This document shows positions 13,005 through 59,725 of a stretch of 64,000 nucleotides of DNA, piece by piece. Positions within the stretch are counted from its first letter, which is position 1. The number at the start of each line of letters is the position of its first letter. Below the pieces are notes generated by a model. The model saw only the letters and a list, made by a program, of their open reading frames with translations. It did not search any database and was not told the DNA's origin. A program made the translations under genes and the position numbers. Origin of the DNA: a bacterium (lineage in GTDB: Bacteria > Patescibacteriota > Dojkabacteria > SC72); contig JAJTYH010000003.1 of NCBI GenBank assembly GCA_021463465.1, forward strand, positions 351,942 through 415,941. The letters are read 5' to 3'.

Positions 13005-13033
13005 TTTGAAGATAATATAATTCTCGTTGCTAT

Positions 13034-13104
13034 TGCCAGGTCGTCTAATGGTAGGACTACGCTCTCTGGAAGCGTGTATCTTAGTTCGAATCTAAGCCTG
13101 GCAA
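13034..13104 (+). tRNA. tRNA-Gln (anticodon CUG)
   Basis: The cloverleaf was folded by hand. Acceptor is TGCCAGG/CCTGGCA (U1:A72, as is typical of bacterial tRNA-Gln). D arm is GTCT-AATGGTA-GGAC. Anticodon arm is ACGCT-CTCTGGA-AGCGT, giving anticodon CTG. T arm is CTTAG-TTCGAAT-CTAAG. Discriminator is A. Confidence 0.85.
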
Positions 13105-13126
13105 GATGTTTTAACGTTTAAAACAC

Positions 13127-33286: not shown

Positions 33287-34924
33287 ATGCGGATTAGTTA
33301 CACGGATACAACCAAACCAGAAGAAAAACCAAAGAGTCAAGTCAAGCTTAGGCACTTTCTTGTGGTCTTTGCTTCTGCGTTTTTAATAACTTTCCTTTGG
33401 TTAGGAGGAAGCGAAGCTTTAAAAACTCCTAGATTTGTTAAACCTTATGAGACTTTCTCTTTGGAACTTCCGTCTGACTTACCAGCAGAAATTAAAACAA
33501 AATTGGAGGAAGATCTGAGTAAGATTGCACTTGAGGGTAAACCTAGGTTCAGTTTTAGCAAGGAGGGTGAATTTGAATTAGGATTCTCTGCTGGGTCAGG
33601 CATTTTGAATTATTATGTTGTGCCAGTGGCACATTTGTACGCAATTGTTGATGATTTTAATCCTGCAAAGCAAAAGATGGTGTTTAGCTCATCTTTACCG
33701 ACTCAAGTAAAGCACTTGCTCTTAGAAGACTATCCTCAAGCTAAAGAAGTCGAAGATATAGATAAGGTTTTAGATGAAGCTGGGAAGACCGTGGCTTTAG
33801 TGGAAGTTAAGACACTCAAGGCTACAAACAAATTGCTTAAATTTGAGGGTAAGTATTTTTTGGATGATAACAACGGATCTCTGGTTTACAGCTTAGGTAT
33901 TAAATCTGGTAACACTTTTGTGTCGGATTTAATTAGGCGTAATGTTGTTGGGCTTAAAGAGTTCGCTTTTGACACAAGTACCATCTCAAAAGTTAATCAA
34001 ACGGGAGTAACTGCAATTACCAGGGCTTTAGCAAAAAAGATTGATGCAAGCGGAGATTTCGCATATCCGGCTAAAAAGATTTCGGAGTTTTTAAAAGATG
34101 TGGATATTACTCATGTGAGTAATGAGATTTCATCGGTACCAGGGTGCGTTCCTACTGATGGGTTAAGGTTTTGTGCCAAACCAGAATATTTGAAGGTTTT
34201 AGAAGAGAGTGGTGTGGATGTAGTTGAGCTAACAGGGAATCACAATAACGATTATGGTGCCAGTTTTAACTTATCAACGATAAAGTCCTACGAAAAAATG
34301 GGTCTTAAGTATTTTGGTGGTGGAAAAGATAAGGAGGATGCAGCCAAAATTCTCTACCTTGAAAATAAGGGTACTAAATTAGCATTCATTGGTTATAACT
34401 ATTATGACACTATTTTAGGAACAGGGGCTTTGGCAGGTGAAGATAGAGCGGGGGCAAATATATACTCTGACAGGAAAATGGAGAAAGATATCCAGAAGGC
34501 CAGGAGCGAAGCAGATGTAGTGATTGTCGACTTCCAATTCCAAGAATGTTACTCGTACCCATCTTCGGATGTGATTTACCCTATCTGTTACAAGCCATTG
34601 GCTTCACCAGATCAGAAAGGTTTGTTTCGTAAAGCAGTTGATTATGGTGCTGATATTGTAGTAGGCACCCAGGCGCACCAGCCACAAACCTTTGAAGCAT
34701 ACAAAGGTAAATTGATATTTTACGGTTTAGGGAATCTGTTCTTCGATCAGATTAATTGGATTGGCACCCGACACGGTTTGATTCTCACCCATTATTTTTC
34801 AAAAGGTAAGTTGATACAAACCAAGTTAACAACTACCAATTACGACGGTGATATGCAGACATATGTTACAAAGGGGGCTCAAAGGGTTCAACTACTTAAT
34901 CTTATAAAAGTAGCTAGGGATTGA
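33287..34924 (+). CDS. CapA/PGA_cap-family metallophosphatase-like capsule/exopolymer biosynthesis protein, membrane-anchored
   Basis: N-terminal TM. C-terminal blocks GNHNNDYG, ADVVIVDFQFQE, GTQAHQPQ and FYGLGNLFFDQ are characteristic of CapA (PF09587). Confidence 0.7.
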   Translation: MRISYTDTTKPEEKPKSQVKLRHFLVVFASAFLITFLWLGGSEALKTPRFVKPYETFSLELPSDLPAEIKTKLEEDLSKIALEGKPRFSFSKEGEFELGFSAGSGILNYYVVPVAHLYAIVDDFNPAKQKMVFSSSLPTQVKHLLLEDYPQAKEVEDIDKVLDEAGKTVALVEVKTLKATNKLLKFEGKYFLDDNNGSLVYSLGIKSGNTFVSDLIRRNVVGLKEFAFDTSTISKVNQTGVTAITRALAKKIDASGDFAYPAKKISEFLKDVDITHVSNEISSVPGCVPTDGLRFCAKPEYLKVLEESGVDVVELTGNHNNDYGASFNLSTIKSYEKMGLKYFGGGKDKEDAAKILYLENKGTKLAFIGYNYYDTILGTGALAGEDRAGANIYSDRKMEKDIQKARSEADVVIVDFQFQECYSYPSSDVIYPICYKPLASPDQKGLFRKAVDYGADIVVGTQAHQPQTFEAYKGKLIFYGLGNLFFDQINWIGTRHGLILTHYFSKGKLIQTKLTTTNYDGDMQTYVTKGAQRVQLLNLIKVARD

Positions 34925-35175
34925 TACTGATATCCTGGATTGTGCCTTCACTTTCCCATGATTTTGTTGTAAAATCGTCGACTTCCCTAATTTGTTATTA
35001 ATACATTAATTGGTTGAGTTCTTACAAGGATTAAATCTAGATATTGCTCCGATGTATAAGTATTTAATCACGCTTTACTCTGGATTTTTGATTCTTGTTG
35101 TATTAACGAATATAACTGCTTTTTCTATGTACTATATATATAAATTTATTCCAATTCGACCTACGGTAAGAAGAA

Positions 35176-35805
35176 ATGGTAAAAAAGTCCCAAATCAAAA
35201 AAAGTATTAGTATTAGCTTTGAAACAGTTATATTAATTATAATTGGCCTGTTCTCGCTGCTGTTTACAATTTATATCATTCTGAATGCCTATGAGCAGGT
35301 GTTTTTTCAAGATATAAGATACCTGCAGACCCTTAGGCGATTCAGAAACAACTTTGTATTGGAATTGATTGAACAGAAGATTTTTACAGCGGGTAGTGAT
35401 GTGAGTTTGCATGAAATAACCAAGGACAATTTCAGGTATATAAGTTTTCCATCTATCAATAGTAGTATTGAGGTTACTGCTTCTTTAAAAAAAGGTGATC
35501 AGTATTACATCAGGGGGAATAAAGCCCATGTGATTAGGAGGGAAAATAGTAATGACACACTTGTATATTTTGATGAGAAATGGAGAACAACATTAAGCAT
35601 GGATGAGCTTGATATAAATAGCCTTATTTTTCTATCATCAAATGATGTAAATTACCTCTTTAAAATTTCTAATATCGCAATTAAGACAGATGAATTTAAA
35701 ACTGATAGTGAGGAAAATCTAGTCCCTAAGCTTTTTATTGTTTGCGAGAATAGTAATAGGGTAAAAATAATTACTGCTGAATTAGTAAATGCAACAAGAA
35801 AATAA
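35176..35805 (+). CDS. hypothetical single-pass membrane protein
   Basis: 209 aa. The N-terminus is KK-rich then a TM (VILIIIGLFSLLFTIYIIL). It lies directly upstream of the GT2 synthase. A 66-aa overlapping ORF at 35010..35210 is also possible. Confidence 0.4.
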   Translation: MVKKSQIKKSISISFETVILIIIGLFSLLFTIYIILNAYEQVFFQDIRYLQTLRRFRNNFVLELIEQKIFTAGSDVSLHEITKDNFRYISFPSINSSIEVTASLKKGDQYYIRGNKAHVIRRENSNDTLVYFDEKWRTTLSMDELDINSLIFLSSNDVNYLFKISNIAIKTDEFKTDSEENLVPKLFIVCENSNRVKIITAELVNATRK

Positions 35806-35807
35806 CT

Positions 35808-37067
35808 ATGACAGGCGAATGGTTCGGAATATTTAGGAATTTAGCTCTCATCTTCGCAAATTTAATGCTTGTTAAGTACTTTATTTTCTTACTACTTGCA
35901 CCAATCTATAGAATACAAGAATTGATTAGGAGAAGGAGAACAGAATCCAACGCTCCCTCAAAACCTTACCTAGTATCAGTAGTTATACCTGCCTGGAATG
36001 AAGAAGTTGGAGTTTTAAAAACTGTTAGGACTGTTTTAAACAATACTTACGAAAATGTTGAGATTGTAATTATAAATGATGGATCAACTGATGACACCTC
36101 GGGAAAAGTTCGCGCATTTATTAAGCTTTTTAGGAGACTTAAAGTATTCCATCCATGGAGGAGAAAAAGAATCAAGTTCATAGATTACAAGCGCAACGGT
36201 GGAAAAGGAAAGGCATTAAATAAAGGAATAGAAAACTCAACTGGTGAAATTGTGCTGACTATTGATGCGGACTCAGTTTTAGAAAGAAATGCAATTGAAA
36301 ATTTAGTAAGGTATTACTACGATGATAAGATTGATGGAGTTGTTGGTAATGTAGTAGTCGCCAATTCCAGGTCAATTATCGGTATAACACAGAAGCTTGA
36401 GTACATGTTTGGGTTCTACTTTAAAAGATCTCATGCTGTCATGGGTGCGGAGTATATTTTTGGTGGAGCTTGTGCATCTTTTAGGCGTAAGGTATTTAAA
36501 AAAATCGGATTATATGATGAGAAAAATAAAACTGAAGATATTGAGATGACAATGAGATTTCGTTTCCATGGGTATAATTGTACATATGCAGAGGATGTGG
36601 TTTGTTTTACTGAAGGTGCTTCAGATGTAGTTGGTCTCATAAGACAAAGAGAAAGGTGGAAAAAAGGACGAATGGATACTTTTATAAAATATAGAAATAT
36701 GTTCTTTAGCACTGACAAAAAACATAATAAACCTCTAACCTTCTTTGTTCTCCCGTTTGCATTATTGTCTGAATTTCAACTGTTACTTGAACCAATATCT
36801 ATTGCACTGTTAATAACTTATTCTTTTGTGGCGCTAGACTTTCTTTCTTTAGCCTTCGGGATTCTGTTTACTTTTGTACTTTACTTAGTGAATGGCATTT
36901 TTAGTGGCAAGGGAATAAATTTAAAGTTACTGATACTATTCCCTTTTACATGGCCTTTCTTTTATTTTCTTATATGGATAGAATTTGTAGCGCTGATTGG
37001 AAGCGTTACTATGGTCTTAAAGGGACAAGAGATTGTGTGGCAAAAGTGGGATAGAAAAGGGATTTAA
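35808..37067 (+). CDS. processive family-2 glycosyltransferase (polysaccharide synthase with QxxRW)
   Basis: GT-A core VVIPAWNEE...IINDGSTDDT, DxD in TIDADSV, and the processive-synthase motif QRERW (QRERWKKGR). TM helices flank both ends. Confidence 0.85.
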   Translation: MTGEWFGIFRNLALIFANLMLVKYFIFLLLAPIYRIQELIRRRRTESNAPSKPYLVSVVIPAWNEEVGVLKTVRTVLNNTYENVEIVIINDGSTDDTSGKVRAFIKLFRRLKVFHPWRRKRIKFIDYKRNGGKGKALNKGIENSTGEIVLTIDADSVLERNAIENLVRYYYDDKIDGVVGNVVVANSRSIIGITQKLEYMFGFYFKRSHAVMGAEYIFGGACASFRRKVFKKIGLYDEKNKTEDIEMTMRFRFHGYNCTYAEDVVCFTEGASDVVGLIRQRERWKKGRMDTFIKYRNMFFSTDKKHNKPLTFFVLPFALLSEFQLLLEPISIALLITYSFVALDFLSLAFGILFTFVLYLVNGIFSGKGINLKLLILFPFTWPFFYFLIWIEFVALIGSVTMVLKGQEIVWQKWDRKGI

Positions 37068-37069
37068 AA

Positions 37070-38332
37070 ATGAATCAACATACCAAAAAAATTAAAAATA
37101 GTTCGATAATATTTATCTTACTTATAACCATAGGCGTTTTTGTTACATTAGGAAGCCTAAGTGGTAATTACGGCTATTTAACTAATGTTCAAAAAACATT
37201 TAGCTCAACTACTTTGAGCCTACTACATCGTCTATTACCTTTTTTAAATAAACAGGCAAATGACCCTAGTATTTTAGAGCCTATTGCTTCAACGCCAGAA
37301 GTGAAATGTAGTAGCAAAAAGCCTATCTTAGGACTAAATGAATCCAAAGACTCAACTTTAAAACGACTTGGAGAGCTCCAGCAAATTTGTGAATCGTTCG
37401 CGACAGACACACAGATGATATTTACAAATATGCCCAATAGTGAAATTAATGCGAGTCGACTTGGGTTAGCCGTTGCAACTAAACTCAAAGAGTTTAGTAA
37501 GTTTGGTGTCCGGCCCCTGGTAATAGTCGAACCAGTGACCGAATGGGGGCCAATTGATTTTGAAGAGTTTAATAGTGGATTTTATAATAAATGGATAGAG
37601 TCATTCTTTGTTAAGCTTAAGAATGAAGGGGTTGGTCAGGGCGATATGGGTATATGGGTACCTTTTCCTGAAGCTAACCTCCCTTATTGGAATAGAGGGT
37701 CATCAAAACCAGAGTTGTTTGGAGAGAATGTGATGATATATTTTAAACTCTTAAGAAAGTACTATCCAACTACTGAAAGGTCTATCCTTCTAAATTCAGT
37801 TTCTTATGCTGCGGATGACGAAAATTGGGAGGATGGTCGTTATACTAGTCTTCTTCCGTATGTCAAAACGTTAAAGCCTGGTAGTGTTGATAGTTTCGGT
37901 ATACAGGGATTCCCGTGGAGATCTCCAAAGAGTGAGAAAAATCCCGTCTATATTTATGATCCGCTTGAGTTTATCAACCCTAGTTTAGCTGTAGAGGCGG
38001 CAAAGTTCTTACATGTTAAAAAAATATGGATAAATACTGGAACATTTAGGGCAAAGTTTACAAATGACCCTGGTGAGTTGGTAACTGAGCCTCCAAATTT
38101 GCGTGCGGAGATATTAAATGAGATTCTAAACCAAGCTGACATTTTGAAAAAAGATGGGTTTGATGTTGCAATCAATATCTTTGCTGAAAATAAAACTGAA
38201 ACAAATGAAGCCACTGACTGGTCGTATTGGGGCAAAAAAGTAACGGAAGCAGATAAACATTCGGAGATATTCAAAGATTTTATCAGCAAATTAAGTGAAA
38301 AAGAAATAGGCTTTTGGTTTTTTGATAGATAA
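37070..38332 (+). CDS. exported hypothetical protein, possibly a TIM-barrel glycoside-hydrolase-like partner of the synthase
   Basis: N-terminal TM/signal, 420 aa. The functional guess rests only on context and weak motifs (e.g. NIFAEN). Confidence 0.35.
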   Translation: MNQHTKKIKNSSIIFILLITIGVFVTLGSLSGNYGYLTNVQKTFSSTTLSLLHRLLPFLNKQANDPSILEPIASTPEVKCSSKKPILGLNESKDSTLKRLGELQQICESFATDTQMIFTNMPNSEINASRLGLAVATKLKEFSKFGVRPLVIVEPVTEWGPIDFEEFNSGFYNKWIESFFVKLKNEGVGQGDMGIWVPFPEANLPYWNRGSSKPELFGENVMIYFKLLRKYYPTTERSILLNSVSYAADDENWEDGRYTSLLPYVKTLKPGSVDSFGIQGFPWRSPKSEKNPVYIYDPLEFINPSLAVEAAKFLHVKKIWINTGTFRAKFTNDPGELVTEPPNLRAEILNEILNQADILKKDGFDVAINIFAENKTETNEATDWSYWGKKVTEADKHSEIFKDFISKLSEKEIGFWFFDR

Positions 38333-38434: not shown

Positions 38435-41400
38435 ATGCTAAGAAAGTTATTTAAACTCCCCAAGAGATATTTTTCTCGATTTATTTCTATTTATCTTGCA
38501 CTTTATCTTACAGTAAGTCCTGCATTAGCCTTCGCAACTACGGAAGGGCTTTTGGTGGATGAAGGCGCTCAAAGTACACCTGTAGTAGCGGAAGAAGAGA
38601 CGGTGCAGACTCCTGAGCCCACAGTCGAAGAAGAATCATCAGAAGTTACGCCTGAACCAGAAGTTGAACCTGAGGTTGTACCGGAGCCAAAGGTAGATGA
38701 ACCTGAAAATGATGAGGTTGATGTAGACGTAGTTAAGTCAGCGGATGGCGAACTTGAAGTTGGTGTGATTGAAACTACACAGTGTTTGGAAAACTCTCTC
38801 AACCCTTGTATTGGAACAGATAAGGAAGATTACGCACCGCATGAGGTAGTTACGTTGAGAGGCCATGGTTACTTACCAGAAAGTCGATACCTACTCATTA
38901 TTACTTCAGCTAATCAACCTCCTGTACGTTTTGAAGCTGAAATTATTACAAACAGCATTGGTGGTTTTAATTACAGTTATCAATTGGATGGTAGATATCG
39001 TCCTGATTACGCAGTAGAGGTTAGGAGTTTGCTCGGTGATATTATTGCAACAGATACATTTACTGATAGTCGTACTATCAATTCTGCTACAGTGAACGGC
39101 GTTGCGAGTATAACCGTCGCTCAGGGTACAACAATATTAGGTGGGGTTAACGTTTCTACAAATGGAAGTGGAAATAATGATGATTGGGCAAGTACGGGAT
39201 GGAGAATCTCTACAAGTGCTCCTGGTGGAGTTAGTTGTGATAATTTCGAGCCCGACATTACCGACGATGTAATGGGTGCTACTAAAGCCTTTAATATGAC
39301 AGCTCCTAATACACCAGGTATTTATAATGCATACTTTATTGCTTACAACAACGATAGTTGTAGCGGTGGAGCAAGTGCAGTCTACGTTCTTGAAAATGCT
39401 GTTACAGTGACAGGACCTGATCTTACAATTTCAAAAAGCAATGATGTAGGAGGTGTTGTAAATGTTGGAGGCTCATTTAACTGGATTATTACGGTTAAAA
39501 ATGAAGGGACTTCATCTGCCATCTTTAACAATGAAGATATTTTGTCGGACTCATTACCAAATGATGGGGTATCGTTTGTTGATACAAGTGATTTGGTAGT
39601 AACAACTGCGGGGGGAGTAACTGGTTCTATTGATTGCGATATTAACAGTAGTACACTTGTTTGCGACGATAACAGCGGTGGCTCTACAGTTGTAATTCCT
39701 GCTGGCGGTTCGTTTACTGTTACAGTCGAAGTGATTGCAAATGAAATTAGAACTTTATCTAACCCAAGAAAAGGTGGAAAGTGTGAAGTTGACCCAAATG
39801 AAGAAGTCGCTGAACAAAATGAGCATAATAATAAGTGTAATGACTCAGTGAAAGTTAACCCAGATACTGGAGTTACTAATCCACCGTTAGGACAATTTTG
39901 TGGCTTAGACATTGCTCTTGTTCTTGATAATTCTACAAGTATAAGCTCAGGAGAGTTGACTCAGATGAAAGCTGCAATGACTGCGTTTACATCCGCATTC
40001 AATGGTACACCTACCGAGTTTTCCGTCTCAAGATTCGCCACTACTGCATCGGTCGTTCAATCATTTACTTCCAATATAACTGCAGTTAACGCTGCAATTA
40101 ATGGAATTCCTTCAGGCGGAGGGTATACAAACTGGGAAGATGGTTTATTTAAAGGTCAAAGTACTTTGACAAATAGACCTACATACCCTGATTTGATGAT
40201 TTTTGCTTCCGATGGTAATCCAAATAGGGTTGATAACGGTACAGATGCAAGTGAGTCGCAAGCAGTAAGCGAAGCTAAAATCATTGCAAATAACATAAAA
40301 ACTGCAGGGGTGAGGATACTTGCACTTGGGATAGGTGATGAGCTGGATACACCTAATCTACAGACTATCTCTGGTAATAATGTTAATACTGGTATTAGTT
40401 CTGATGTTATAACTTCGGACTTCGCGACCCTTGCTGCCGATTTAGCTGATTACGCTATTCAACTTTGTGGAGGAACTATTAATGTAAAAAAATTGGTTGA
40501 CGGTAATCCTGCTGCTAACTGGGTATTTACTATTGATGGTGATCAGCATATTACAGGAGCTGATGGCTTTATCCCTTCAGTTGAAGTAGATAATGGTACT
40601 TACAGTGTAGTTGAGACTCCAAAGAATGGATTTACATTCCAATCTGCCGTTTGTACGATCAACAATCAGTCAGTAGGTTCACCGATTACTAATGGCGTAG
40701 GAGCAATCTCAGTAGATTCAAACGATATTGTGACCTGTACATTTAACAATATTACGAACGCATTCTGTGGCGATGGAGTTGTGAACCAGCAGTCCGAGCA
40801 GTGTGACAGTGGAGCTTCCAATGGTATTGCTTGTACTCCAACTTATGCTAACAGCTGTAATTACTGTAGTAACACCTGTCAAACCGTGAATATTCATGGG
40901 CCATACTGTGGTGATGGAATCAAGAATGGTCCTGAGCAGTGTGATGGCTCAGATGGTGTATCTGGGTCTGATTTCGCATGTACACAGAGTTGTGAGTTGG
41001 ATTTGGTTGAAAAGAAAGTAATGATCTGTCATGCGACAAGTAGTAATACTAATCCTTATGTCTCTAATGAACCTGCTAAATCAGCTGATGTAGCGGGTCA
41101 TGATGGCCATAATGGACCAGTTTGGTCTGCAGGAATTGATGGCGATTGGGGAGATATTATACCTCCGTTTAATTATGTAGGAGGTTCATATCCAGGCAAG
41201 AACTGGACAGCTGAGGGTCAAGCGATTTGGAATAATCAATGCGAAATTGAAAAGGGAACTATTGTTGTACAAAAGACCACTGTACCAGCAGGCAATCAAA
41301 CCAACTTTGATGTTTCTATAACTGGGGATGGATATATTTTTGAAAATGATAAAGGTACTGTAAGTGATTCACAGGATCACTCATTTATCGTTGAACCAGG

Positions 41401-44400
41401 AACTTATTCAGTTGAAGAGGATGCGGTTTCAGGCTGGGAAATTACGGGCAATACCTGTGATGATGTTACAGTTGCAAACGGAGAGACTAAGTATTGCCAG
41501 ATTACTAACACTAAAGTAACTGATGTGTCAATCACAAAATCGGACACACCTGATCCAGTATTAACTGGTGGTTTGTTGACTTATATTGTGACGATTGAGA
41601 ATGAAAGTGATACTAATGCAGAGAATGTTGTAGTAACCGATAACCTTCCTGCCGCATTTATGGCCATTTTCTCGGTAATACCAAGTCAGGGTTCATGTTC
41701 AGATACAACCCTTCCTTCTCCTGTGGTTTGTGAACTTGGAACTTTAGCTGCAGATGCCAGTGCCACAATTGAAATTAAAGGCTTAGCTTTTGGCATAGGA
41801 AGTATTGAGAATAATGCTTCAGTTACAACTTCGACTTACGAGATTGATTTGAAAGATAACACTACCGTTGAGGATACGACTATTGTAGATCAACCATCAG
41901 CGTGTGTTGAAGGCCAGAGATGGGCTAGTAGTGTAGTGAGTGCTTCGCAAGGTTTGCAAAAAGATGGATCGACCGTACTTTTGTCCCGCAGTGTACCTGC
42001 GAGTGCGATTGGTTTACCTGATGCTGCCACTAATCCTGATACAGGCTTTTATAGTTTAGGTAAGGGTGGTTCTATCGTGGTGGCGTTCACCTCACCAGTT
42101 GTTAACGGTGAAGGTACAGACATTTCAATTCATGAAGTGACTAATGGAAGAGAGAATTACCCTGAAGAAACCGCAAGTGTAGAGGTCAGTACGGACAATG
42201 GAGGAAGCTGGCACAATGTAGGTAGTGCATCAAGTTTGTCCACTAATGGTGTGACTTTGATTGATATAGCACCTTACACAGGTGTAACGCATGTTAGAGT
42301 GACTGATACTACTAACTTTAACCTCAATCCAAATTCGAATGCTGATGGATTTGATTTGGACGCAGTTGATGTCGACTGTAAGGCTTCTATAACCGTGATT
42401 AAAGATGTTGATATCAATGGTGATGGACAAGTTGATAAGACTAATTCTACTGATTGGGCTTGGGATATCAATGGAAGTGGTAATTATGAGACTGGAAGCA
42501 AAGTAGATGTCCAACCTGGATCATATGTGATTTCTGAAAGCCAGAAGCCTTCATACCATGTAGTTTCCTTAGTTTGTGGTCAGACTAACTACGGTGCAGT
42601 TGAGAGTCAGCAGATAAGCGTCTCGGAAGGTGAAGAACTTACTTGTACTTTTACTAACAGTGTCGATACTGGTTCTGTGAAAGTTAACAAGAGAGTTGAT
42701 CTAAATGGTGATGGAGTGTGGGGAGGTGGAAATGAGAATAGTAAGGCATATATCAGCTCCCTTGGATTTAGCTGGACTTTAGATGCAGTTGGTTCAATTA
42801 ACTTCGGCGATACCGTTACTCCTGTAATCACAGGTGCTCATCAAGTGAATGAGAATAGTCTCGAAGGCTACCACTTTGTTGCATGGTATGTAACGGGTGA
42901 AGAGGGACGTTCATGCACAAATCCTAATGGAACAACCGTACCTGTTGATATTAATGTCGTGAAGAACTCAACAGCTGAAATCACTTTGTGTAATGCAAGG
43001 GATATGGGTCAAATTACTATTGTTAAGGATTCAGTTAACAATGATGGAAAAGACTTTAACTTTTCAACTAGTACTTTGGGGTCATTTATATTAGATGATG
43101 ATGGTAATAATGGAAATCAGCACTCAAATACCAAAGTGTTCAATGTACCTTCGGGAGCATATTGGGTACGTGAGAATAGTGCCTCGGGCTGGAAACTGAC
43201 TGATTTGGTTTGTATCGGAGATGACAATTCTGTTGTTGATATCGAAAATCGAAGAGCTGATTTAGACCTAGATTTGAATGAAAATATTACCTGTACCTTT
43301 ACCAATACTAAGTTAGCAGAGATCAAGGGAACGAAGTTCAACGATCGAAACGGTGATAATCACCAAAGCTTACTCTCAGGAGAGACTTGGATGAACGGCT
43401 GGAAGATTTTTATTGATGAAAATCACAATAGCAGTTATGACACTGGAGAACTTACAGATACAACCAGTGGTTGGTTCTTTATGGATTTAGGAAAGTATGA
43501 TTTCGAGGGTTTGTTACCGGGAACTTATACGGTTTGTGAACAAATGCAAGAAGGTTGGTATGCCTCAGGTCCAGTCTGTCGTGAGATATTACTTGAGCCA
43601 GGTGATAGGAAAGAGGTGAATTTCGGTAATCACCAATCGCTAAGAATTATCGCTTCAAAGATTGTCTGTAACAGTGAAGATGACTTACCTAACTGGGGAA
43701 GTGGAGCAGGTAATATCAATTCAAATACTGCAACCAATTTCGTTGCGAATAACCCAGATTGTCAGTTAGTTTCTGACTGGCAGTTCCAGTGGGGATATGA
43801 TGGTGAAGTAGATAAGTACGGTAATGGAGACCAGTTAGGTTTGGCTCCGGAACCATGGCAGATTCTTGGATCGACGGATGCTAGTGGTGTAGCTGACATT
43901 GAGATTATGACAACTCCTGAAGGAAAAGGACTTAGTAACTTGTGGGTACGTGAGAGTTTAATGCCAGGGTATGTGGCATTCAGTTATCCACCAGCACAAC
44001 CTGAAGAAAATCCATACTCGGCTGAAATGTATTGTCACAAAGATGTCCTTTATTATGACAATTTTGATCGAATTGAAGAGGTAAAGTTTGGTGAGACCTA
44101 TTACTGTGTAGCCTTCAATGCTCTAAAGACTGGTGATATCACCGTTACTAAAGAGGTTGTAGATCCAGATGGTAATCCAGTTGAAGATACATCTACTCTC
44201 TTTACAGTGAATCTTAATGAAAGCAATCCACAACAGCTTACTGATGGTCAGTCAGTGGTTTACGGTGACTTGCCAATCGGTACATATACCGTGACTGAGG
44301 ATCCATCCGGAAACTATACTTTTGATAGTTTCGAAGGGGATGAAAATAGCGAAATAGAAGGAGCGCAGGTTACGGTTACTGAGGAAGGTAATACTAATGT

Positions 44401-46369
44401 GAAGGTAATCAATAAGCAGATTAAGGGTAAAGTCATTGTGCACAAAGATGTAGTAGATGCTAACTTTGACTCCGAAGCTACTAGCGACGATCTTTTTGAA
44501 GTAGTACTTGGTGGTGAAGGGTTAGAAGGCGCAGTGAAGTTTATTTCTGATGCACAGAGTGAACCAGTGGTTGCCGAATATGAGCTTAATCCCGGTGAAT
44601 ATAGCTTTACTGAGAATAATCTTCCCGGTTATAACTTCTTGGGTTGTTACATTGAAGAAGTTGAAGCAAGACAAGTTGGAATCGAAGAAAATGTCGCGAT
44701 TTATGATACGCAGGTCGAAGTAGAACTTGGTAGCAATCAAACCAAGGAATATACCTGCGTCAACCAGGCAGTGGGGGCACAGTTGCAACTGGAAAAAACT
44801 AACAATGTCCTTGGAGTTGATCAAATTGCAGGTAATGTTGTTCAGTATACTTTGACAGTAACTGCACCAACTGATGACGAAGTTCCAGAGGATGTGGTAT
44901 TAACAGGATTAAGTGATAACCCTTATGTCTTAGAAGATGTGAAGGTGGTAGATTTGACTCCAGAGGGTTTCACCTACGTTAACGGTACCTGGACAGCAAG
45001 TTCCGATATTAGAGGTGATATCAAAGCTTCAAATGTAACTACAGAGCCTACTTACGCTTCACCTGGTACATGGAACTTAGGTGATATGGTGGAAGGTGAG
45101 GTAGTAACACTTACGTACCTTGCTACGATTTCTAACGCTCAAGATGCAGGTTTATACAAAGACTTAGCATGGACTCAAGGAACTAATGTATTGGGAAATA
45201 GCATTTATGGCACTGCAGCCTTCGGCCTCTTTGCTGGTACACAAGTTAATGTGATTGATGATTTGGAAGAGGGTCAAGCTGAGGTGCTTGGTGTGTCATT
45301 GCCAAACACAGGTGCTAATATAATCTGGGCAATATTTGCTTTGGCTTCCTTCTCATTGGGTGTAATCCTAGTTGGATATGGACTTGGTAAGAAGAGTCGC
45401 AAGATTTCCATCTTGGTGGCCGTCTTGATACTGTTGGGATTGGTTGGATTTTCACGACCTGAAGATGTATACGCGGCTTCTAGCCTTGCCGTACGAATCG
45501 AACAGCCAGAAGCTTTGTCAAATGACAATACAATTAAGGTAGGGTTTGTAGCACTTGATTTAGAAGGTAGGGATGTGAGCGTACAATGTCTTAAGAAAGG
45601 ACCTGGAGACGGTAGTTTCGTAGACTTTGGGACAACTATCAACTTAGGAAGTGGTGGAAATAGCGGTGATTGTAACGTAGGCAGCGCTATACTAAATGCA
45701 GATGGTACTTACGAATTCAAAGTTGAGGCCACAGCAGAAGAGGAAGTAATTGAGTCAGAAGCAGCGTCAATGACATTGGACACAGTAGGTCCTGATATGA
45801 TTACTGGGTATGAGAAGAGTAAGAATGCTTGTGAATATACTTTGAACTTAACAACAGCAAGTGACGGACAGACCTCAGCAGTACAGATTTTCAGATCGAC
45901 TGAGCGAACCTTTGTAGCTAACAGTTCAACACTTGTGGTTGAGCTTCCTGCCACACCTGGCCAGGTAATTGAATATGTTGATAATGTATCTAATTGTAAT
46001 CTTGAGTATTTCTATGCCATTAGAGCTTTGGATAATGCTGACAATAGCTCAGACTTTGTAGCTGACTCACTTGTTGAGGTCACTCCAGGAGTTGTCGATG
46101 AAGATAGACAAGAAGGAGAAGATGGAGAAGTTGCTGGTAGTGAGACTGAATCAGACGACGGTGCGGTAAAGGGTGAAGCAGATAACGAAGAGGATGAAAA
46201 TCAAGGAAATACCCCGGGAGAAGAGACCAAAGTGACTTCAACTGGAGGAGACAATAATGTAATGTGGATTGTAGGAATTATTTTAGGCGGAGCAGTTGTA
46301 TGGCTATTGACCCGACTCGGGATTATACAATCAATCTTCCAGTGGATAATGATGAAGCTAAGAAAGTAA
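38435..46369 (+). CDS. giant multi-domain cell-surface protein (signal peptide, EP-rich acidic linker, DUF11 repeats, vWA domain, Cys-rich CGDG repeats, Cna-B/prealbumin-like repeats, internal LPNTG sorting signal, C-terminal TM)
   Basis: 2,644-aa single ORF. Signal peptide MLRKLFKLPKRYFSRFISIYLALYLTVSPALA. vWA block LDIALVLDNSTSIS...IFASDGNPN. DUF11-like blocks LTISKSNDVGGVVNVGGSFNWIITVKNEG and VSITKSDTPDPVLTGGLLTYIVTIENES. Repeats CGDGVVNQQSEQCD and CGDGIKNGPEQCD. The sorting signal LPNTG is at 45299-45313, followed by a TM and KKSRK. A further 351 aa follow, ending in a second TM plus KLRK. Confidence 0.85.
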   Translation: MLRKLFKLPKRYFSRFISIYLALYLTVSPALAFATTEGLLVDEGAQSTPVVAEEETVQTPEPTVEEESSEVTPEPEVEPEVVPEPKVDEPENDEVDVDVVKSADGELEVGVIETTQCLENSLNPCIGTDKEDYAPHEVVTLRGHGYLPESRYLLIITSANQPPVRFEAEIITNSIGGFNYSYQLDGRYRPDYAVEVRSLLGDIIATDTFTDSRTINSATVNGVASITVAQGTTILGGVNVSTNGSGNNDDWASTGWRISTSAPGGVSCDNFEPDITDDVMGATKAFNMTAPNTPGIYNAYFIAYNNDSCSGGASAVYVLENAVTVTGPDLTISKSNDVGGVVNVGGSFNWIITVKNEGTSSAIFNNEDILSDSLPNDGVSFVDTSDLVVTTAGGVTGSIDCDINSSTLVCDDNSGGSTVVIPAGGSFTVTVEVIANEIRTLSNPRKGGKCEVDPNEEVAEQNEHNNKCNDSVKVNPDTGVTNPPLGQFCGLDIALVLDNSTSISSGELTQMKAAMTAFTSAFNGTPTEFSVSRFATTASVVQSFTSNITAVNAAINGIPSGGGYTNWEDGLFKGQSTLTNRPTYPDLMIFASDGNPNRVDNGTDASESQAVSEAKIIANNIKTAGVRILALGIGDELDTPNLQTISGNNVNTGISSDVITSDFATLAADLADYAIQLCGGTINVKKLVDGNPAANWVFTIDGDQHITGADGFIPSVEVDNGTYSVVETPKNGFTFQSAVCTINNQSVGSPITNGVGAISVDSNDIVTCTFNNITNAFCGDGVVNQQSEQCDSGASNGIACTPTYANSCNYCSNTCQTVNIHGPYCGDGIKNGPEQCDGSDGVSGSDFACTQSCELDLVEKKVMICHATSSNTNPYVSNEPAKSADVAGHDGHNGPVWSAGIDGDWGDIIPPFNYVGGSYPGKNWTAEGQAIWNNQCEIEKGTIVVQKTTVPAGNQTNFDVSITGDGYIFENDKGTVSDSQDHSFIVEPGTYSVEEDAVSGWEITGNTCDDVTVANGETKYCQITNTKVTDVSITKSDTPDPVLTGGLLTYIVTIENESDTNAENVVVTDNLPAAFMAIFSVIPSQGSCSDTTLPSPVVCELGTLAADASATIEIKGLAFGIGSIENNASVTTSTYEIDLKDNTTVEDTTIVDQPSACVEGQRWASSVVSASQGLQKDGSTVLLSRSVPASAIGLPDAATNPDTGFYSLGKGGSIVVAFTSPVVNGEGTDISIHEVTNGRENYPEETASVEVSTDNGGSWHNVGSASSLSTNGVTLIDIAPYTGVTHVRVTDTTNFNLNPNSNADGFDLDAVDVDCKASITVIKDVDINGDGQVDKTNSTDWAWDINGSGNYETGSKVDVQPGSYVISESQKPSYHVVSLVCGQTNYGAVESQQISVSEGEELTCTFTNSVDTGSVKVNKRVDLNGDGVWGGGNENSKAYISSLGFSWTLDAVGSINFGDTVTPVITGAHQVNENSLEGYHFVAWYVTGEEGRSCTNPNGTTVPVDINVVKNSTAEITLCNARDMGQITIVKDSVNNDGKDFNFSTSTLGSFILDDDGNNGNQHSNTKVFNVPSGAYWVRENSASGWKLTDLVCIGDDNSVVDIENRRADLDLDLNENITCTFTNTKLAEIKGTKFNDRNGDNHQSLLSGETWMNGWKIFIDENHNSSYDTGELTDTTSGWFFMDLGKYDFEGLLPGTYTVCEQMQEGWYASGPVCREILLEPGDRKEVNFGNHQSLRIIASKIVCNSEDDLPNWGSGAGNINSNTATNFVANNPDCQLVSDWQFQWGYDGEVDKYGNGDQLGLAPEPWQILGSTDASGVADIEIMTTPEGKGLSNLWVRESLMPGYVAFSYPPAQPEENPYSAEMYCHKDVLYYDNFDRIEEVKFGETYYCVAFNALKTGDITVTKEVVDPDGNPVEDTSTLFTVNLNESNPQQLTDGQSVVYGDLPIGTYTVTEDPSGNYTFDSFEGDENSEIEGAQVTVTEEGNTNVKVINKQIKGKVIVHKDVVDANFDSEATSDDLFEVVLGGEGLEGAVKFISDAQSEPVVAEYELNPGEYSFTENNLPGYNFLGCYIEEVEARQVGIEENVAIYDTQVEVELGSNQTKEYTCVNQAVGAQLQLEKTNNVLGVDQIAGNVVQYTLTVTAPTDDEVPEDVVLTGLSDNPYVLEDVKVVDLTPEGFTYVNGTWTASSDIRGDIKASNVTTEPTYASPGTWNLGDMVEGEVVTLTYLATISNAQDAGLYKDLAWTQGTNVLGNSIYGTAAFGLFAGTQVNVIDDLEEGQAEVLGVSLPNTGANIIWAIFALASFSLGVILVGYGLGKKSRKISILVAVLILLGLVGFSRPEDVYAASSLAVRIEQPEALSNDNTIKVGFVALDLEGRDVSVQCLKKGPGDGSFVDFGTTINLGSGGNSGDCNVGSAILNADGTYEFKVEATAEEEVIESEAASMTLDTVGPDMITGYEKSKNACEYTLNLTTASDGQTSAVQIFRSTERTFVANSSTLVVELPATPGQVIEYVDNVSNCNLEYFYAIRALDNADNSSDFVADSLVEVTPGVVDEDRQEGEDGEVAGSETESDDGAVKGEADNEEDENQGNTPGEETKVTSTGGDNNVMWIVGIILGGAVVWLLTRLGIIQSIFQWIMMKLRK

Positions 46370-54675: not shown

Positions 54676-54731
54676 TTTTTTATTTGGTTATGTATTGGAA
54701 TTATTGTATCTCAATAAGAGGAAATTGACTC

Positions 54732-54803
54732 CTCCGCGACCAGGATTCGAACCTGGAACCAACCGGTTAACAGCCGGTCGCTCTACCGTTGAGCTATCGC
54801 GGA
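54732..54803 (-). tRNA. tRNA-Asn (anticodon GUU)
   Basis: The reverse complement folds by hand. Acceptor TCCGCGA/TCGCGGA. D arm GCTC-AACGGTA-GAGC. Anticodon arm ACCGG-CTGTTAA-CCGGT, giving GTT. T arm CCAGG-TTCGAAT-CCTGG. Discriminator G. Confidence 0.88.
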
Positions 54804-54898
54804 ATATCAGCAATCATTATACTTATCGCCTCCCATTTACGCAATATTTACATATCTGGTAATATATATGTAGATTCTAATTTCAAATCAATATTCAA

Positions 54899-55958: not shown

Positions 55959-56743
55959 TTGGATTTCAACTGGTTTGAAATCTCGGTATAAAGGTTTTTA
56001 ACTATGGTTGTGCTGGTTTTCAAGAAACCATACTTAGGTACATTTGCGACGTTGTTTTGAACCTTAGCAGCAGCTTCCAATTCGGCTAACCAACCTTCCT
56101 TGAGATCTTGGACACTTTTGTTTACATAATACTCAACAATTTCAGCCTTCTTGTCTTCAAACTTCACCTTTTCAGTACCGTATAACACATCCTTATATTG
56201 TTTAAAGAAATCCTCAAGCTCCTTGTCCGTGTAGGACACTCTCTTGGCAAGAACCTTCTCCATCAAAAGACCTATTTTAATCTGCTCTCTGACATCTTGC
56301 TCTGTAAAATTGTTGGCTTTTAGCGTGGCAAGTACTGCGTCTCGTCCTCCATTTTCATTGTAATAGTCGTTTAGACGTTTCTGTATATCATCTTCAGTAA
56401 CTGCGACGCCTTCTTTTGCGGCTCCTTGTGTTACGAGCTCTTCTTGTATCAAGCTTTTGGTAGTGCTAAGCCCGTAAGTCTTCTCAAGTCGATTGTAGAA
56501 GTCACCTCTGGTGATTCTTACACCATTAACAATAGCCACACTGTAGGAGTTATTTAGGTATTGCACAAGTAAATCAACAAGTGCAAATGAAAAAACAAGA
56601 ATTAAAGCCAGGACAATCGTCTTAACAACTTTGTCTGTATTGAATTTCTCTCTTAGCTTATTCAAATCAATCTTTGGAAGTGTTAACTTCTTAGGAATTG
56701 CAATTTTAGCAGGTGTAGCAACTTTCTTTTCGGTCTTAGCCAT
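55955..56743 (-). CDS. SurA-N-terminal-domain-like / PrsA-like membrane-anchored chaperone lacking an obvious PPIase domain
   Basis: Start chosen at MAKTEKK (ATG 56743). It has a TM anchor and then a helical domain resembling the SurA N-terminal chaperone module. Weak assignment. Confidence 0.4.
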   Translation of the reverse strand: MAKTEKKVATPAKIAIPKKLTLPKIDLNKLREKFNTDKVVKTIVLALILVFSFALVDLLVQYLNNSYSVAIVNGVRITRGDFYNRLEKTYGLSTTKSLIQEELVTQGAAKEGVAVTEDDIQKRLNDYYNENGGRDAVLATLKANNFTEQDVREQIKIGLLMEKVLAKRVSYTDKELEDFFKQYKDVLYGTEKVKFEDKKAEIVEYYVNKSVQDLKEGWLAELEAAAKVQNNVANVPKYGFLKTSTTIVKNLYTEISNQLKSN

Positions 56744-57470
56744 ATTTAAGAATGTACAAGTTATATTTACGTACAAGAATAGCAGAAATTACCCCTATCA
56801 GCAAAATAATTAACAATGGGAACAATGAGTCACCTGTCTGTGGCAGACCTTCTTGAGCAATTCCACCAATATTCTCAGCGCCAGGGGTAGGGGTAGCGTA
56901 GACTAGAAAGTCTGTATAAGAGTTGTTGGTATCTGTGAACTCATGGCGTCCAAGGCTTTCACCAGATGCACCGACTATTGCAGTCTGATTGTCTGGCACC
57001 ATATTGTTGCCGAAGTCCCAAAGAGAGTTAGAATTAGGTTGATCGTAAAAGATCTGGTCCACGTGCACTCCTTCTGTTGTCACAATAGAAATTGCGTCGG
57101 TAGCGGTCCCACCGTTTTGTAATCCGAGCCTAGGTGTAGGCATATTGCAATTGGGGACGCCTACATCGCAGATTAAAAAGTATGAATGTGCCGGGATAGT
57201 TGCTGAAAAGGTTAACTGCTCTTGGAAGGTTGTACCAGCAATGAGAATCTTCCAATTGTTTAATACAACAGTGTTGGCAGAAACATTGAATAATTCAATC
57301 CATTCCTTGCCAGTATCTTCTCCTTCAGGGTCAAAAAGTACTTCATTGATAATCACAGGGTTAGGAGTCTCGCCAGCCAGGACACTTTGGTCTAGCCAAA
57401 TAAGGCTAAACAAAAGTAGAAGTAAAATAAAAATAGGTTTAAAAGGTTTTAAAAAGTTTTTCATACTCAA
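56736..57470 (-). CDS. LPXTG-anchored lamin-tail-domain (LTD) surface protein
   Basis: Signal peptide, LTD signature VIINEVLFDPEGEDTGKEWIELFNVS, and the C-terminal sorting signal LPQTGDS plus TM plus RK. Confidence 0.7.
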   Translation of the reverse strand: MSMKNFLKPFKPIFILLLLLFSLIWLDQSVLAGETPNPVIINEVLFDPEGEDTGKEWIELFNVSANTVVLNNWKILIAGTTFQEQLTFSATIPAHSYFLICDVGVPNCNMPTPRLGLQNGGTATDAISIVTTEGVHVDQIFYDQPNSNSLWDFGNNMVPDNQTAIVGASGESLGRHEFTDTNNSYTDFLVYATPTPGAENIGGIAQEGLPQTGDSLFPLLIILLIGVISAILVRKYNLYILKYG

Positions 57471-57502: not shown

Positions 57503-58786
57503 TTAACGCAGGTGGAGATACATAGAGGTTAAACCATTGCCGTAATCGACTATAACAGCCTTACCGCCGCAAGCATCTGTGAACACCTTACTGACTTTAC
57601 CGTTACGAATAGCTCTAAGAGGGGCTCCTTCTCCGTTAAGATTGTAATAGCCTGCGGGAACTCTATAACCGTAGCAACTAACTCCTTTAGTGTAATATTT
57701 ATCTCCTCGTTGATACAAATAGTCGCTACCACTTACCATATCGATGGCCGAGTATCCGCTGTGAGGGAATTGAGTGATGATGGCATTGTCTTCAGGAAAT
57801 CGGGATGAACCGCTGCCATTTGACCAGACAAAATGTCCTGAAGAATAAGGATTGATTACAGCACCGTTCTTTCGAAGTTCAAAGTGTAGGTGTGAACCGA
57901 AAGCTAAACCTGTGTGACCCTGAAACCCAACGATATCACCTTTATTAACAGGTGTATTTGTAGGTAGTTGACCCTTACTATACAGATTGAAGATAAGGTT
58001 GCTGATTTGCGCCGTGATCTTGTCTTCCTGCTTTTTGAGGGTAGCTAATTTAGCGTTGTAGTCAGCCTCTTTTTGTTGTGATAATGAGAGAAGGTATGAT
58101 TTCTCGTCTCGTTGTTTAGTAAGACTCTCTTTTTCGGCAAAAAGTTCCGTCTTATCCTCTTCTACCTCATTTCGTTTCATTTCAACTGAAACTTTTTTTT
58201 CTGCTAAAACGGTCTCCTCCTGTTTCAAAATCTCTGCCTTTTGTGAAAGTTCTTCTAGTAGTTCTTTATCCTTCTTTCGAGTTTCAACAAGATATTTGAA
58301 CCTTCGTAGCAGCGATTCGAAATTAGAAGATTCTAAGAAGATTTCAAGGGGCGTAATGAAAGAGTATTTATAAGTTAGGGACATTCGCTTTTGGATGGCG
58401 CTATCGAGTTTATGCACCTCTTGCGAAACCGTATCAATATTATTTTGAAGCTCTACTATATATCTTCCTAAGATTCTGATTTCCACGTTCTTGGTTTCGA
58501 TTTCGAGCTCGAGTTTTTTGATTTGGGCTTCAGAAGATGCAATTTGTGAATCGATGTAATTGATTTTCTCATGAAGTGAGAGCTGATTGTACTGTTCAAT
58601 ACCTATCTTACTGTTTAAATTTGATTTCTGATTCTGTAGAGCTTGTGACTGCTGTTGTAGGTATGCTAGGCACTGTGCATCGGACATATGTGACGGGCAT
58701 GTAGTATCCACAGCCATTACAGGAAAAACTAGCAAGTTGGTTAACACTACAATTAATGTTGTAAAGACATTTATGAAGATTTTCAT
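57503..58786 (-). CDS. coiled-coil M23/LytM-domain murein hydrolase activator (EnvC/PcsB-like)
   Basis: Signal/TM, about 250 aa of coiled coil, and a C-terminal M23 motif GFQGHTGLAFGSHLHFELRKNG. It is the last gene of the ftsE-ftsX operon. Confidence 0.8.
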   Translation of the reverse strand: MKIFINVFTTLIVVLTNLLVFPVMAVDTTCPSHMSDAQCLAYLQQQSQALQNQKSNLNSKIGIEQYNQLSLHEKINYIDSQIASSEAQIKKLELEIETKNVEIRILGRYIVELQNNIDTVSQEVHKLDSAIQKRMSLTYKYSFITPLEIFLESSNFESLLRRFKYLVETRKKDKELLEELSQKAEILKQEETVLAEKKVSVEMKRNEVEEDKTELFAEKESLTKQRDEKSYLLSLSQQKEADYNAKLATLKKQEDKITAQISNLIFNLYSKGQLPTNTPVNKGDIVGFQGHTGLAFGSHLHFELRKNGAVINPYSSGHFVWSNGSGSSRFPEDNAIITQFPHSGYSAIDMVSGSDYLYQRGDKYYTKGVSCYGYRVPAGYYNLNGEGAPLRAIRNGKVSKVFTDACGGKAVIVDYGNGLTSMYLHLR

Positions 58787-59725
58787 CTATTTCTGCTTAA
58801 GTTCTAAATATCGCAGTACCGCTATGTAACTACTTATGACTCCAAAAATGAGTCCAGAAGCCATTAGGACGGCGTAAAAGATTAAAGTAAATTTCAAATC
58901 GAACGAGGAGAGGAAGCCAAGCGACAGCTCATTTAAAAGTGACGAAATCCAGAAGTGGAAGTCACTGCCTGATGAAACATGCATTACGGTATACCATGGG
59001 AAGAGAATTAATGACGAGGCTAAAAAAGAACCGGTAAGACCGTAAATAGCTCCCTCTATCAGAAATGGTACTTTTATGAACGGTGCTGGACTTCCAACAA
59101 GATCCATAATCTCTATTTCATCTTTGTGAGCCAAGATATTAAATCCAATTCCAATCATAATGAGTGCAAAAGTGATACCTCCAAGTCCCAAAATCAAGGC
59201 CGCAACCCCAATATTAAACCCTTTTGAGAGAGCTGAAAGTATTGAAAGTACATCCCTGAAGTACATCACATCATCAATATAGGCATTTTTCTCACGTTCT
59301 TCGTTTATGGTCTTAACCACCGTTTCCAAATCTTGTGCAGACTTAGCACGAATTCCAAGGCTTGGTGGAAGAGTATCTGTAGAGAGTGTGTCTACCAAAT
59401 CGGGATCATTTATGAAATCAGCTTTATACTGTTCTAAAGCCTTTTCTTTTGAAATGTATTCAATGTTATCAACAGTACTGGTATCGTTGATTTTATCCCT
59501 GAATTTGAAGATTTCCTCTTCAGGAGTTTCTTGCTTGAAGAACACAATCACTTGAGCTTTCTTTTCATAGTATTTAACTGCCTTTTGCGCAATTATTCCG
59601 GTGCCAATAAAAAAGGCAGAGAGTGTGAAGACAATCGATACCACAAGAATCGTGGAGATTGAAAGCCATCGGTTTCGTGTGATGTTATCTTTAGTTGTTT
59701 TAAGTAATCTTGAAAATGTTTCCAT
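58787..59725 (-). CDS. ftsX: cell division permease FtsX-like
   Basis: 312 aa with an N-terminal TM, a large extracytoplasmic loop and three C-terminal TMs. It sits directly downstream of ftsE with overlapping stop/start. Confidence 0.8.
   Translation of the reverse strand: METFSRLLKTTKDNITRNRWLSISTILVVSIVFTLSAFFIGTGIIAQKAVKYYEKKAQVIVFFKQETPEEEIFKFRDKINDTSTVDNIEYISKEKALEQYKADFINDPDLVDTLSTDTLPPSLGIRAKSAQDLETVVKTINEEREKNAYIDDVMYFRDVLSILSALSKGFNIGVAALILGLGGITFALIMIGIGFNILAHKDEIEIMDLVGSPAPFIKVPFLIEGAIYGLTGSFLASSLILFPWYTVMHVSSGSDFHFWISSLLNELSLGFLSSFDLKFTLIFYAVLMASGLIFGVISSYIAVLRYLELKQK

Follow-up and report, generated by a model that had tools for sequence, protein, structure and literature searches.

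A giant LPxTG protein with an in-frame fused Fn3 accessory protein and a neighbouring sortase gene in a Dojkabacteria genome

We describe a locus in a 64,000-nucleotide stretch of DNA (the window) from a bacterium of the Dojkabacteria (Patescibacteriota, lineage SC72; contig JAJTYH010000003.1 of assembly GCA_021463465.1, positions 351,942 to 415,941), which encodes a giant protein of 2644 residues and, directly behind it, a sortase. The giant protein comprises more than one functional unit: its C-terminal ∼320 residues correspond to a conserved accessory protein in its own right, with fibronectin type III (Fn3)-like domains, fused in frame behind a sorting signal that here lies inside the polypeptide. 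What is more interesting at the locus is the cassette itself, in which an Fn3 accessory protein joins a giant LPxTG protein and a sortase, and the polyprotein form that it takes here. An earlier note on the window had proposed the giant protein as prime candidate for the organism's cell-cell or cell-surface interaction factor. That account overlooked the internal LPNTG signal, the fused module and the adjacent sortase, and the C-terminal ∼320 residues have to be taken out of its candidate.

The giant gene is a single uninterrupted open reading frame (ORF) at 38435..46369 (+), 12.4% of the window where the note had given 12%. Three Logan contigs, assembled independently, encode an identical 2644-residue protein, which NCBI also lists, from a metagenome-assembled genome (MAG), as MCC7290032.1 ('VWA domain-containing protein [bacterium]'); the giant protein is therefore not an assembly artefact. 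Its relatives come from genomes of the Candidate Phyla Radiation (CPR, or Patescibacteria), in the Microgenomates group. The predicted architecture is that of a fibrillar surface adhesin: a signal peptide, a VWA domain with a complete metal ion-dependent adhesion site (MIDAS), a stalk of CLIPPER and SpaA-type domains, an LPxTG signal and a neighbouring sortase. From this layout we infer the adhesive role, and the reading that a small-genome (CPR) bacterium here makes a genuine giant surface adhesin is reasonable though unproven. The earlier note's interpretation as an adhesin of a small-genome bacterium is thus supported in part; its 'host- or particle-binding' stays a suggestion.

The accessory module and the internal sorting signal

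The sorting signal is made up of an LPNTG motif (residues 2289–2293), a hydrophobic transmembrane (TM) segment (TM1, 2296–2314) and a basic KKSRK cluster, in the order of motif, hydrophobic segment and basic tail found in LPXTG substrates of sortases. It is the only LPxTG-type signal in the window. By the textbook rule a sorting signal ends its protein, at the extreme C-terminus; here 351 residues follow the motif. A second hydrophobic stretch lies at residues 2324–2342, in a segment ending VYA/ASS that aligns with the N-terminal signal peptides of standalone homologues. In the fused form the basic cluster, as we read the alignment, does double duty: it closes the sorting signal as its charged tail and opens the following signal peptide as its n-region. 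A regular expression for AxA-type cleavage sites ahead of the module was also tried, and was set aside as too permissive to serve as evidence.

The accessory module was modelled with AlphaFold2 (AF2) from an 18-row alignment as two beta-sandwiches, with a mean confidence (pLDDT) of 95.3. The fold is tandem Fn3; it is a generic one, so that the role of the accessory protein cannot be read from its structure, and no Pfam family covers the module. Two disulfides are conserved (C2383–C2411 and C2464–C2519). Between the two Fn3 domains lies the motif P2451..P2454..Y2457-x-K2459, in which K2459 is kept in 91%, Y2457 in 88% and P2451 in 100% of 158 modules; the lysine is replaced by arginine in two relatives (P0006 and P0008). 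The protein ends in a TM anchor and has no LPxTG of its own. A [VIL]LG motif, similar to the VLGAS that stands ahead of LPxTG, is found in the stalk of 142 of 156 proteins.

The 15 closest homologues of the giant protein show both states of the tail. Six end canonically, after LPxTG, a TM segment and KKK, and nine carry the same C-terminal extension, one of these with LSETG instead of LPxTG. At loci with the extension the sortase follows directly downstream. At two loci with canonical ends (L002, from Levybacteria, and L003) a separate gene of 320–337 codons lies between giant gene and sortase, and its product is 37% identical to the tail of our protein.

A word-indexed search with the tail module alone returned one fragment only. 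Using an alignment of the module built from six closer sequences, we scanned one genome per species and obtained 41 loci, 40 of them analysable. They come from Gottesman-, Davies-, Pace-, Levy-, Collier-, Shapiro- and Roizmanbacteria, WWE3, Dojkabacteria, Moraniibacteria and Saccharimonadales. Titles are taken as deposited; on several third-party MAG records they read 'Gammaproteobacteria' or 'Bdellovibrionales'. In 36 of these 40 loci a sortase homologue (phmmer E 6e-9 to 2e-53, most <1e-38) starts between −130 and +11 nucleotides from where the module ORF ends; contig ends cut two of the remaining four. The module is fused in frame behind an LPxTG in 18 loci and standalone in 21. In all 21 standalone loci the upstream ORF, of 204–3075 residues, ends in VLGAS..LPxTG, a TM segment and a basic tail, and its junction with the open frame of the module gene lies at −52 to +1 nucleotides.

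A family census by profile search of 1.84 billion cluster representatives (E ≤ 1e-30) found 529 proteins carrying the module, always ∼98 residues from the C-terminus. Among 157 cluster representatives, 93 are fused and 60 standalone. An LPxTG is kept 45–74 residues upstream of the module in 93 of 96 fused representatives (LPATG in 57, LPSTG in 15 and LPGTG in 11 of the 93), with [VIL]LG within the eight residues ahead of it in 78 of the 93; two hydrophobic segments split by a basic cluster are present in 93 of 93. Since the signal is retained together with both hydrophobic segments and the basic cluster, the internal LPxTG is under selection.

These counts bear on two less favoured explanations of the fused form. 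The first is that an assembly frameshift or a recent inactivating mutation, leaving a pseudogene, has joined two genes that are normally separate. In many relatives the separate genes overlap only slightly, so that an indel of small size could be enough for a fusion. The identical protein on three contigs and in the NCBI MAG argues against this, as does the fused state of 93 of 157 representatives and 18 of 40 species-level loci. On a neighbour-joining tree of 155 modules, moreover, the state changed at least 21 times, against 41–55 changes with shuffled states, so that fusion or fission is recurrent but clustered by lineage. We find such an accident hardly credible.

The second explanation leaves the internal LPNTG unprocessed: the whole polytopic protein, with three TM segments, would display its ectodomain and the Fn3 module together, and the sortase would serve other substrates. 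Such a topology is self-consistent, and we know of no canonical sortase substrate with a large extension beyond its sorting signal. On the other side stand the fixed distance between LPxTG and module in nearly all fused representatives, the same signal at the end of every upstream protein in the standalone loci, the adjacency of the sortase almost without exception, and a window that offers the enzyme no other LPxTG protein. We judge it very unlikely that the signal goes unused.

The sortase and the proposed processing of the polyprotein

The product of the sortase gene scores 84.4 bits against PF04203 (cutoff 26.6) and 58.8 bits against TIGR01076 (cutoff 39.35), with H119, C187 (in TLMTC) and R196 as candidate catalytic residues. 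Its ATG overlaps the TAA of the giant gene in the junction TAATG, and the two are probably translationally coupled. As a separate observation, the Levybacteria locus L002 (sortase genes at 1–108 and 10415–11035) has, besides that of the cassette, a further sortase gene ∼5 kb upstream of it, which means that more than one sortase is encoded in at least some of these genomes.

We consider it probable that one polyprotein here holds two functional units, which the sortase separates. Residues 1–2292 would form a Sec-exported fibrillar adhesin: a linker, beta domains, a metal-dependent MIDAS VWA domain that would bind the ligand, and a long stalk in which three uncharacterised domain types accompany CLIPPER and SpaA/CnaB-type domains. 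Residues 2289–2323 would constitute a complete LPXTG sorting signal, and those from about 2324 to 2644 an accessory protein that runs from a signal-like TM segment through two Fn3-like domains and an acidic stalk to its C-terminal TM anchor. Sec would export the polyprotein; TM1 would stop transfer, and TM2 would re-insert and so export the Fn3 module. The co-expressed downstream sortase would then cleave between T2292 and G2293 and transfer the adhesin covalently to an envelope acceptor, most simply a peptidoglycan precursor, while the accessory protein would remain in the membrane beside the enzyme. Peptidoglycan, the usual acceptor, is plausible because the window also codes for peptidoglycan enzymes (an S11 carboxypeptidase and FtsEX-M23). 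The cleavage, the acceptor and the function of the accessory protein are what we infer; what we observe is the set of domains, the motif, a conserved gene order and standalone genes homologous to the tail.

Several points weigh against this account. Cleavage and anchoring in CPR organisms, like a ligand of the VWA domain, are putative. The accessory protein offers only its generic Fn3 fold. The sortase falls in no curated class (best class score 63.5 bits against 160), so that any specificity or nucleophile given to it here is tentative. The isopeptide triads of the stalk, described below, are sequence patterns only.

The ten best solved relatives of the sortase are all pilus-type class C enzymes (E 2.5e-10 to 2e-7; class A ∼1e-5), and these would fit another end product, a pilus-like fibre in two pieces. 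The sortase would join T2292 not to peptidoglycan but to the accessory Fn3 protein, which would be a membrane-anchored base subunit; Lys2459 of the P..P..Y-x-K motif, or the N-terminus left by signal-peptidase cleavage, would be the acceptor, and fusion would guarantee donor and acceptor in a 1:1 ratio. The gene order is like that of a minimal pilus operon, with a tip-like VWA adhesin, a small protein of two domains and then the sortase, and the accessory protein always stands between substrate and enzyme. The conservation of K2459, Y2457 and P2451 fits as well, and so does the [VIL]LG of the stalk, as if the accessory protein had derived from a sortase substrate. However, the module has an Fn3 fold and not the CnaA or CnaB fold of known pilins, the lysine is not kept in the two relatives with arginine, and P-x-x-P-x-N is what Fn3 domains generally show at their start. 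The sortase misses the cutoff of the class C (pilus) model NF033745 (63.5 bits against 160, the alignment being confined to the catalytic core) and, ending 10 residues past the arginine, has no C-terminal TM segment; the accessory protein lacks both the CnaA/CnaB fold and the LPXTG by which a pilus base or minor pilin is recognized. We regard such a fibre as possible though rather unlikely. No more than tentative, too, is its extension to the Microgenomates-group CPR as a three-part cassette, in which the sortase would split and then re-join the polyprotein into a membrane-anchored two-piece fibre without major pilin and without attachment to peptidoglycan. A DPF sequence in the sortase (DVDPFSY) was considered as a class C 'lid' and rejected, as it sits after the IPKIG strand and not before it.

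Head and stalk of the giant protein

The features of the locus are listed in Table 1. A search with Pfam upheld the domain list of the earlier note, whose range of 39870–41010 (residues 479–859) takes in the VWA domain, the first SpaA-like repeat and both CGDG repeats.

Table 1. Features of the giant protein, the adjoining sortase gene and the genes upstream
Feature	Residues	Window positions (strand)	Basis or remark
N-terminal signal peptide (predicted)	1–34	38435..38536 (+)	Basic n-region, hydrophobic residues 16–34, ALAFA; read by eye from sequence
Acidic E/P/V-rich linker	35–104	38537..38746 (+)	Composition; matches only low-complexity TonB-like
Two conserved beta-rich domains	105–215, 213–330	38747..39424 (+)	Local jackhmmer
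DUF11/CARDB-like domain, below threshold	329–478	39419..39868 (+)	PF01345 E 0.028; CARDB E 0.0022
VWA domain, complete MIDAS	492–650	39908..40384 (+)	PF00092 E 6.5e-15 to 2.5e-16
SpaA-type prealbumin-like repeat 1	680–776	40472..40762 (+)	SpaA and SpaA_2; GTINVKK / YSVVE / CTFNN; Cys pair
Two CGDG cysteine-rich repeats	778–858	40766..41008 (+)	CGDG at residues 778 and 825
Uncharacterised 'ICHAT' domain, ∼80 residues	860–940	41012..41254 (+)	Conserved residues, AF2 model
SpaA-type repeat 2	941–1027	41255..41515 (+)	SpaA_2 weak; GTIVVQK...YSVEE...CQITN
CLIPPER/DUF11 domain	1030–1144	41522..41866 (+)	PF01345 63–67 bits; TIGR01451 27–30 bits
Uncharacterised domain, ∼165 residues	1152–1315	41888..42379 (+)	7 copies in 6 other CPR giant proteins
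SpaA-type repeats 3–5	1317–1626	42383..43312 (+)	SpaA_2 at 1314–1405, SpaA_4 at 1527–1626; K/E/N in each
SdrD_B-like repeat	1630–1733	43322..43633 (+)	PF17210 22.5 bits against 29.7, below threshold
Uncharacterised four-cysteine domain, ∼165 residues	1735–1896	43637..44122 (+)	15 copies in 14 other CPR giant proteins
Two further CnaB-like repeats	1900–2113	44132..44773 (+)	DUF5979 weak, below threshold
Membrane-proximal CLIPPER-like domain	2114–2270	44774..45244 (+)	DUF11 E 0.003, RrgB_K2N_iso_D2 E 0.045, weak
Sorting signal VLGVS-LPNTG, TM1, KKSRK	2283–2323	45281..45403 (+)	Motif and hydrophobicity
Second hydrophobic segment, signal peptide of accessory protein	2324–2347	45404..45475 (+)	Alignment with signal peptides of standalone homologues
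Tandem Fn3-like domains	2348–2552	45476..46090 (+)	AF2 model
Acidic stalk and C-terminal TM anchor	2553–2644	46091..46366 (+)	TM3 at residues 2613–2631
Sortase gene, 206 residues		46369..46989 (+)	PF04203, TIGR01076
PGA_cap		33287–34924	Co-directional with adhesin gene
209-residue protein without assigned family		Between PGA_cap and family 2 glycosyltransferase	Upstream set
Family 2 glycosyltransferase		35808–37067	Upstream set
420-residue protein without assigned family		37070–38332	Upstream set

The stretch that the note had called EP-rich and acidic is the linker, which counts 18 E, 14 V and 9 P among its 70 residues. Of the two beta domains behind it, the first recurs in 46 other CPR giant proteins and the second in 12 (local jackhmmer); neither has a Pfam match. 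The DUF11/CARDB-like domain shows the pattern K334...D372...N-rich end.

The VWA domain is well supported, at 56.2–60.8 bits against a PF00092 cutoff of 23.8, and its MIDAS motif is complete (D498-N-S500-T-S502, T565 in GGYTNWEDG and D593 in FASDGNPN), from which metal binding is predicted. A PDB search with the VWA domain plus the first SpaA repeat found no meaningful sequence relative. It has to be asked here whether the protein is an adhesin at all, since giant repetitive wall-anchored proteins can be structural: it might instead form an envelope or spacer fibre, or an S-layer-like coat, in which the VWA domain would mediate self-assembly. The lack of a known ligand would suit such a role, as would the upstream genes (PGA_cap and the glycosyltransferase), which suggest synthesis of a surface polysaccharide. 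Against it, a MIDAS-complete VWA domain carried distally on a long stalk is how RrgA- and SpaC-type tip adhesins are laid out. This is also the usual layout of adhesins (PMC12617251), and domain content differs strongly among relatives of the giant protein, as expected of interaction proteins. A structural role of this kind is in our view unlikely.

The two cysteine-rich CGDG repeats noted earlier are present. They score 16.8 bits against TIGR02232, under its curated cutoff of 20.8, and the repeat has 60 copies across 25 related giant proteins; the AF2 models of the repeats are poor (pLDDT 31–55). The ICHAT domain that follows is confidently modelled (pLDDT 84–95) and recurs in 19 other CPR giant proteins, after a CGDG repeat in 10 of the 19. 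Its invariant residues in 18 sequences are I-C-H, P, G-H, DIIPP, G, NW, I and a final C, and the conserved histidine and cysteines might point to metal binding. Neither Pfam nor PDB sequence searches matched it, and no PDB structure matched its fold (best Foldseek E 3.2). Pfam and PDB sequence searches with the domains at residues 1152–1315 and 1735–1896 were likewise without match, and the three uncharacterised families are candidates for new Pfam entries.

For the prealbumin-like repeats of the stalk we tested three families (PF17802, PF19403 and PF24514). SpaA_2 (best at residues 1314–1405, 53.2 bits against 25), SpaA_4 (1527–1626, 48.4 against 27.3) and SpaA (681–742, 27.1 against 23.1) all exceed their Pfam cutoffs. 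The 'Cna-B/prealbumin-like' repeats of the earlier note are thus borne out as prealbumin-like, while Pfam Cna_B (PF05738) has no match anywhere in the giant protein. In total there are seven or eight SpaA-type repeats with K/E/N signatures. These residues are the first-strand lysine, central glutamate and last-strand asparagine of CnaB-type isopeptide domains. The pattern [GS]x[ILV]x[ILV]xK ... Yx[ILVFW]xE ... (C)xxxN occurs in seven repeats, mostly with a cysteine pair; the two repeats at residues 1900–2113 read GDITVTK...YTVTE...VINK and GKVIVHK...YSFTE...CVNQ.

Of the two DUF11 blocks in the note's description, one is firm: the CLIPPER domain, whose 63–67 bits compare with a PF01345 cutoff of 24.6. 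Two further DUF11-like stretches, at residues 329–384 (15.2 bits) and about 2163–2236 (18.3 bits), fall below it. A PDB sequence search with the CLIPPER domain found nothing meaningful, and so gave no alignment to the solved CLIPPER structure 9IFR. Its candidate isopeptide triad (K1035, D1069 and N1126/1127) lies at the expected places in the sequence, and the membrane-proximal domain, found in 135 of 216 related proteins with jackhmmer, has candidate residues K2121, D2173 and D2243. CLIPPER, SpaA_2 and SpaA_4 are isopeptide-domain families typical of fibrillar adhesins and often accompanied by disulfides, although not all DUF11 domains form the bond (PMC12617251). The isopeptide residues that the note had wished to see looked for are thus present as patterns, in seven SpaA-type repeats and one CLIPPER triad, and the stalk is probably stabilised by isopeptide bonds and disulfides.

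An antisense ORF of 176 codons (39382–39912, −) lies wholly within the giant gene, and most likely reflects chance, given the length of that gene.

Surroundings, related systems and biological meaning

Directly upstream of the adhesin gene, at 33287–38332, is a co-directional, tightly packed set of genes (Table 1) that may be a surface-polymer cluster. Elsewhere in the window, a class II tRNA synthetase of the aspartyl/asparaginyl type (7269–9161, 630 residues) carries a C-terminal YbaK-type tRNA_edit domain, and a 244-residue ORF (56736–57470, −) with a Lamin Tail Domain (PF00932, 42.6 bits) adjoins genes for an M23 peptidase and FtsX/FtsE (57503–60591). The only Rfam matches in the window are tRNA-Gln(CTG) at 13033–13105 (+) and tRNA-Asn(GTT) at 54731–54804 (−). 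GC skew is positive in nearly all 2-kb bins of the window (1–64000), the cumulative skew reaching up to +3.9; strong strand compositional disparity has been noted for a published Microgenomates genome (PMC7143001).

The adhesin part is of a kind already known: fibrillar, sortase-anchored and with a VWA head. RrgA, GBS104/PilA and SpaC are VWA-containing, sortase-dependent tip adhesins of Gram-positive pili. All three share with our protein a MIDAS VWA domain among CnaB/CnaA-type isopeptide domains, an LPXTG and an adjacent sortase. Unlike them, the giant protein is 3–4 times longer, with about 20 domains, and has no detectable PDB sequence relative of its VWA domain; there is no major pilin gene, the partner protein is membrane-anchored, with an Fn3 fold and without LPXTG, and the sortase misses the class C cutoff and has no C-terminal TM segment. 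Fibrillar adhesins with CLIPPER and SpaA_2/3/4 (PMC12617251) likewise have a signal peptide, an adhesive domain, a stalk of isopeptide families with frequent disulfides, and a sorting domain; here a single CLIPPER exceeds threshold, at least three domain types are outside Pfam and the sorting signal is internal. The Gram-negative sortase TIGR03784 adjoins its LPXTG VIT/VWA target as a dedicated pair (PMC3237569), and so resembles our locus as one enzyme-target cassette with a sortase beside a single VWA-containing LPXTG substrate. Our sortase, from a CPR lineage, scores 25 bits against the TIGR03784 cutoff of 158, and a further conserved member, the Fn3 accessory protein, belongs to its cassette as the third, in many cases as part of the substrate polypeptide. 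The CGDG repeat matches the Myxococcus cysteine-rich repeat (TIGR02232) in the CGDGxxxxxExCD spacing of its cysteines and acidic residues, but is below cutoff and often succeeded by an ICHAT domain.

Literature searches on sortase, LPXTG and internal LPXTG in CPR, Patescibacteria or Microgenomates gave only passing mentions that a sortase gene exists. An obligatory third component, an internal sorting signal and recurrent fusion, unmatched in the searchable literature, appear undescribed, although absence there is not proof of novelty.

How ultrasmall CPR bacteria attach to hosts or particles is largely unexplained, and attention has so far centred on type IV pili. The locus points to a second, widespread CPR surface system, of at least 529 protein clusters, in which a conserved membrane partner with tandem Fn3 domains accompanies a sortase and a giant, variable adhesin. 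An internal sorting signal with a whole second protein behind it breaks the textbook C-terminal rule, and does so in most of the analysed members of the family; it predicts that a sortase would here split a polyprotein. For metagenomes, the Fn3 module provides a clean marker of such adhesins.

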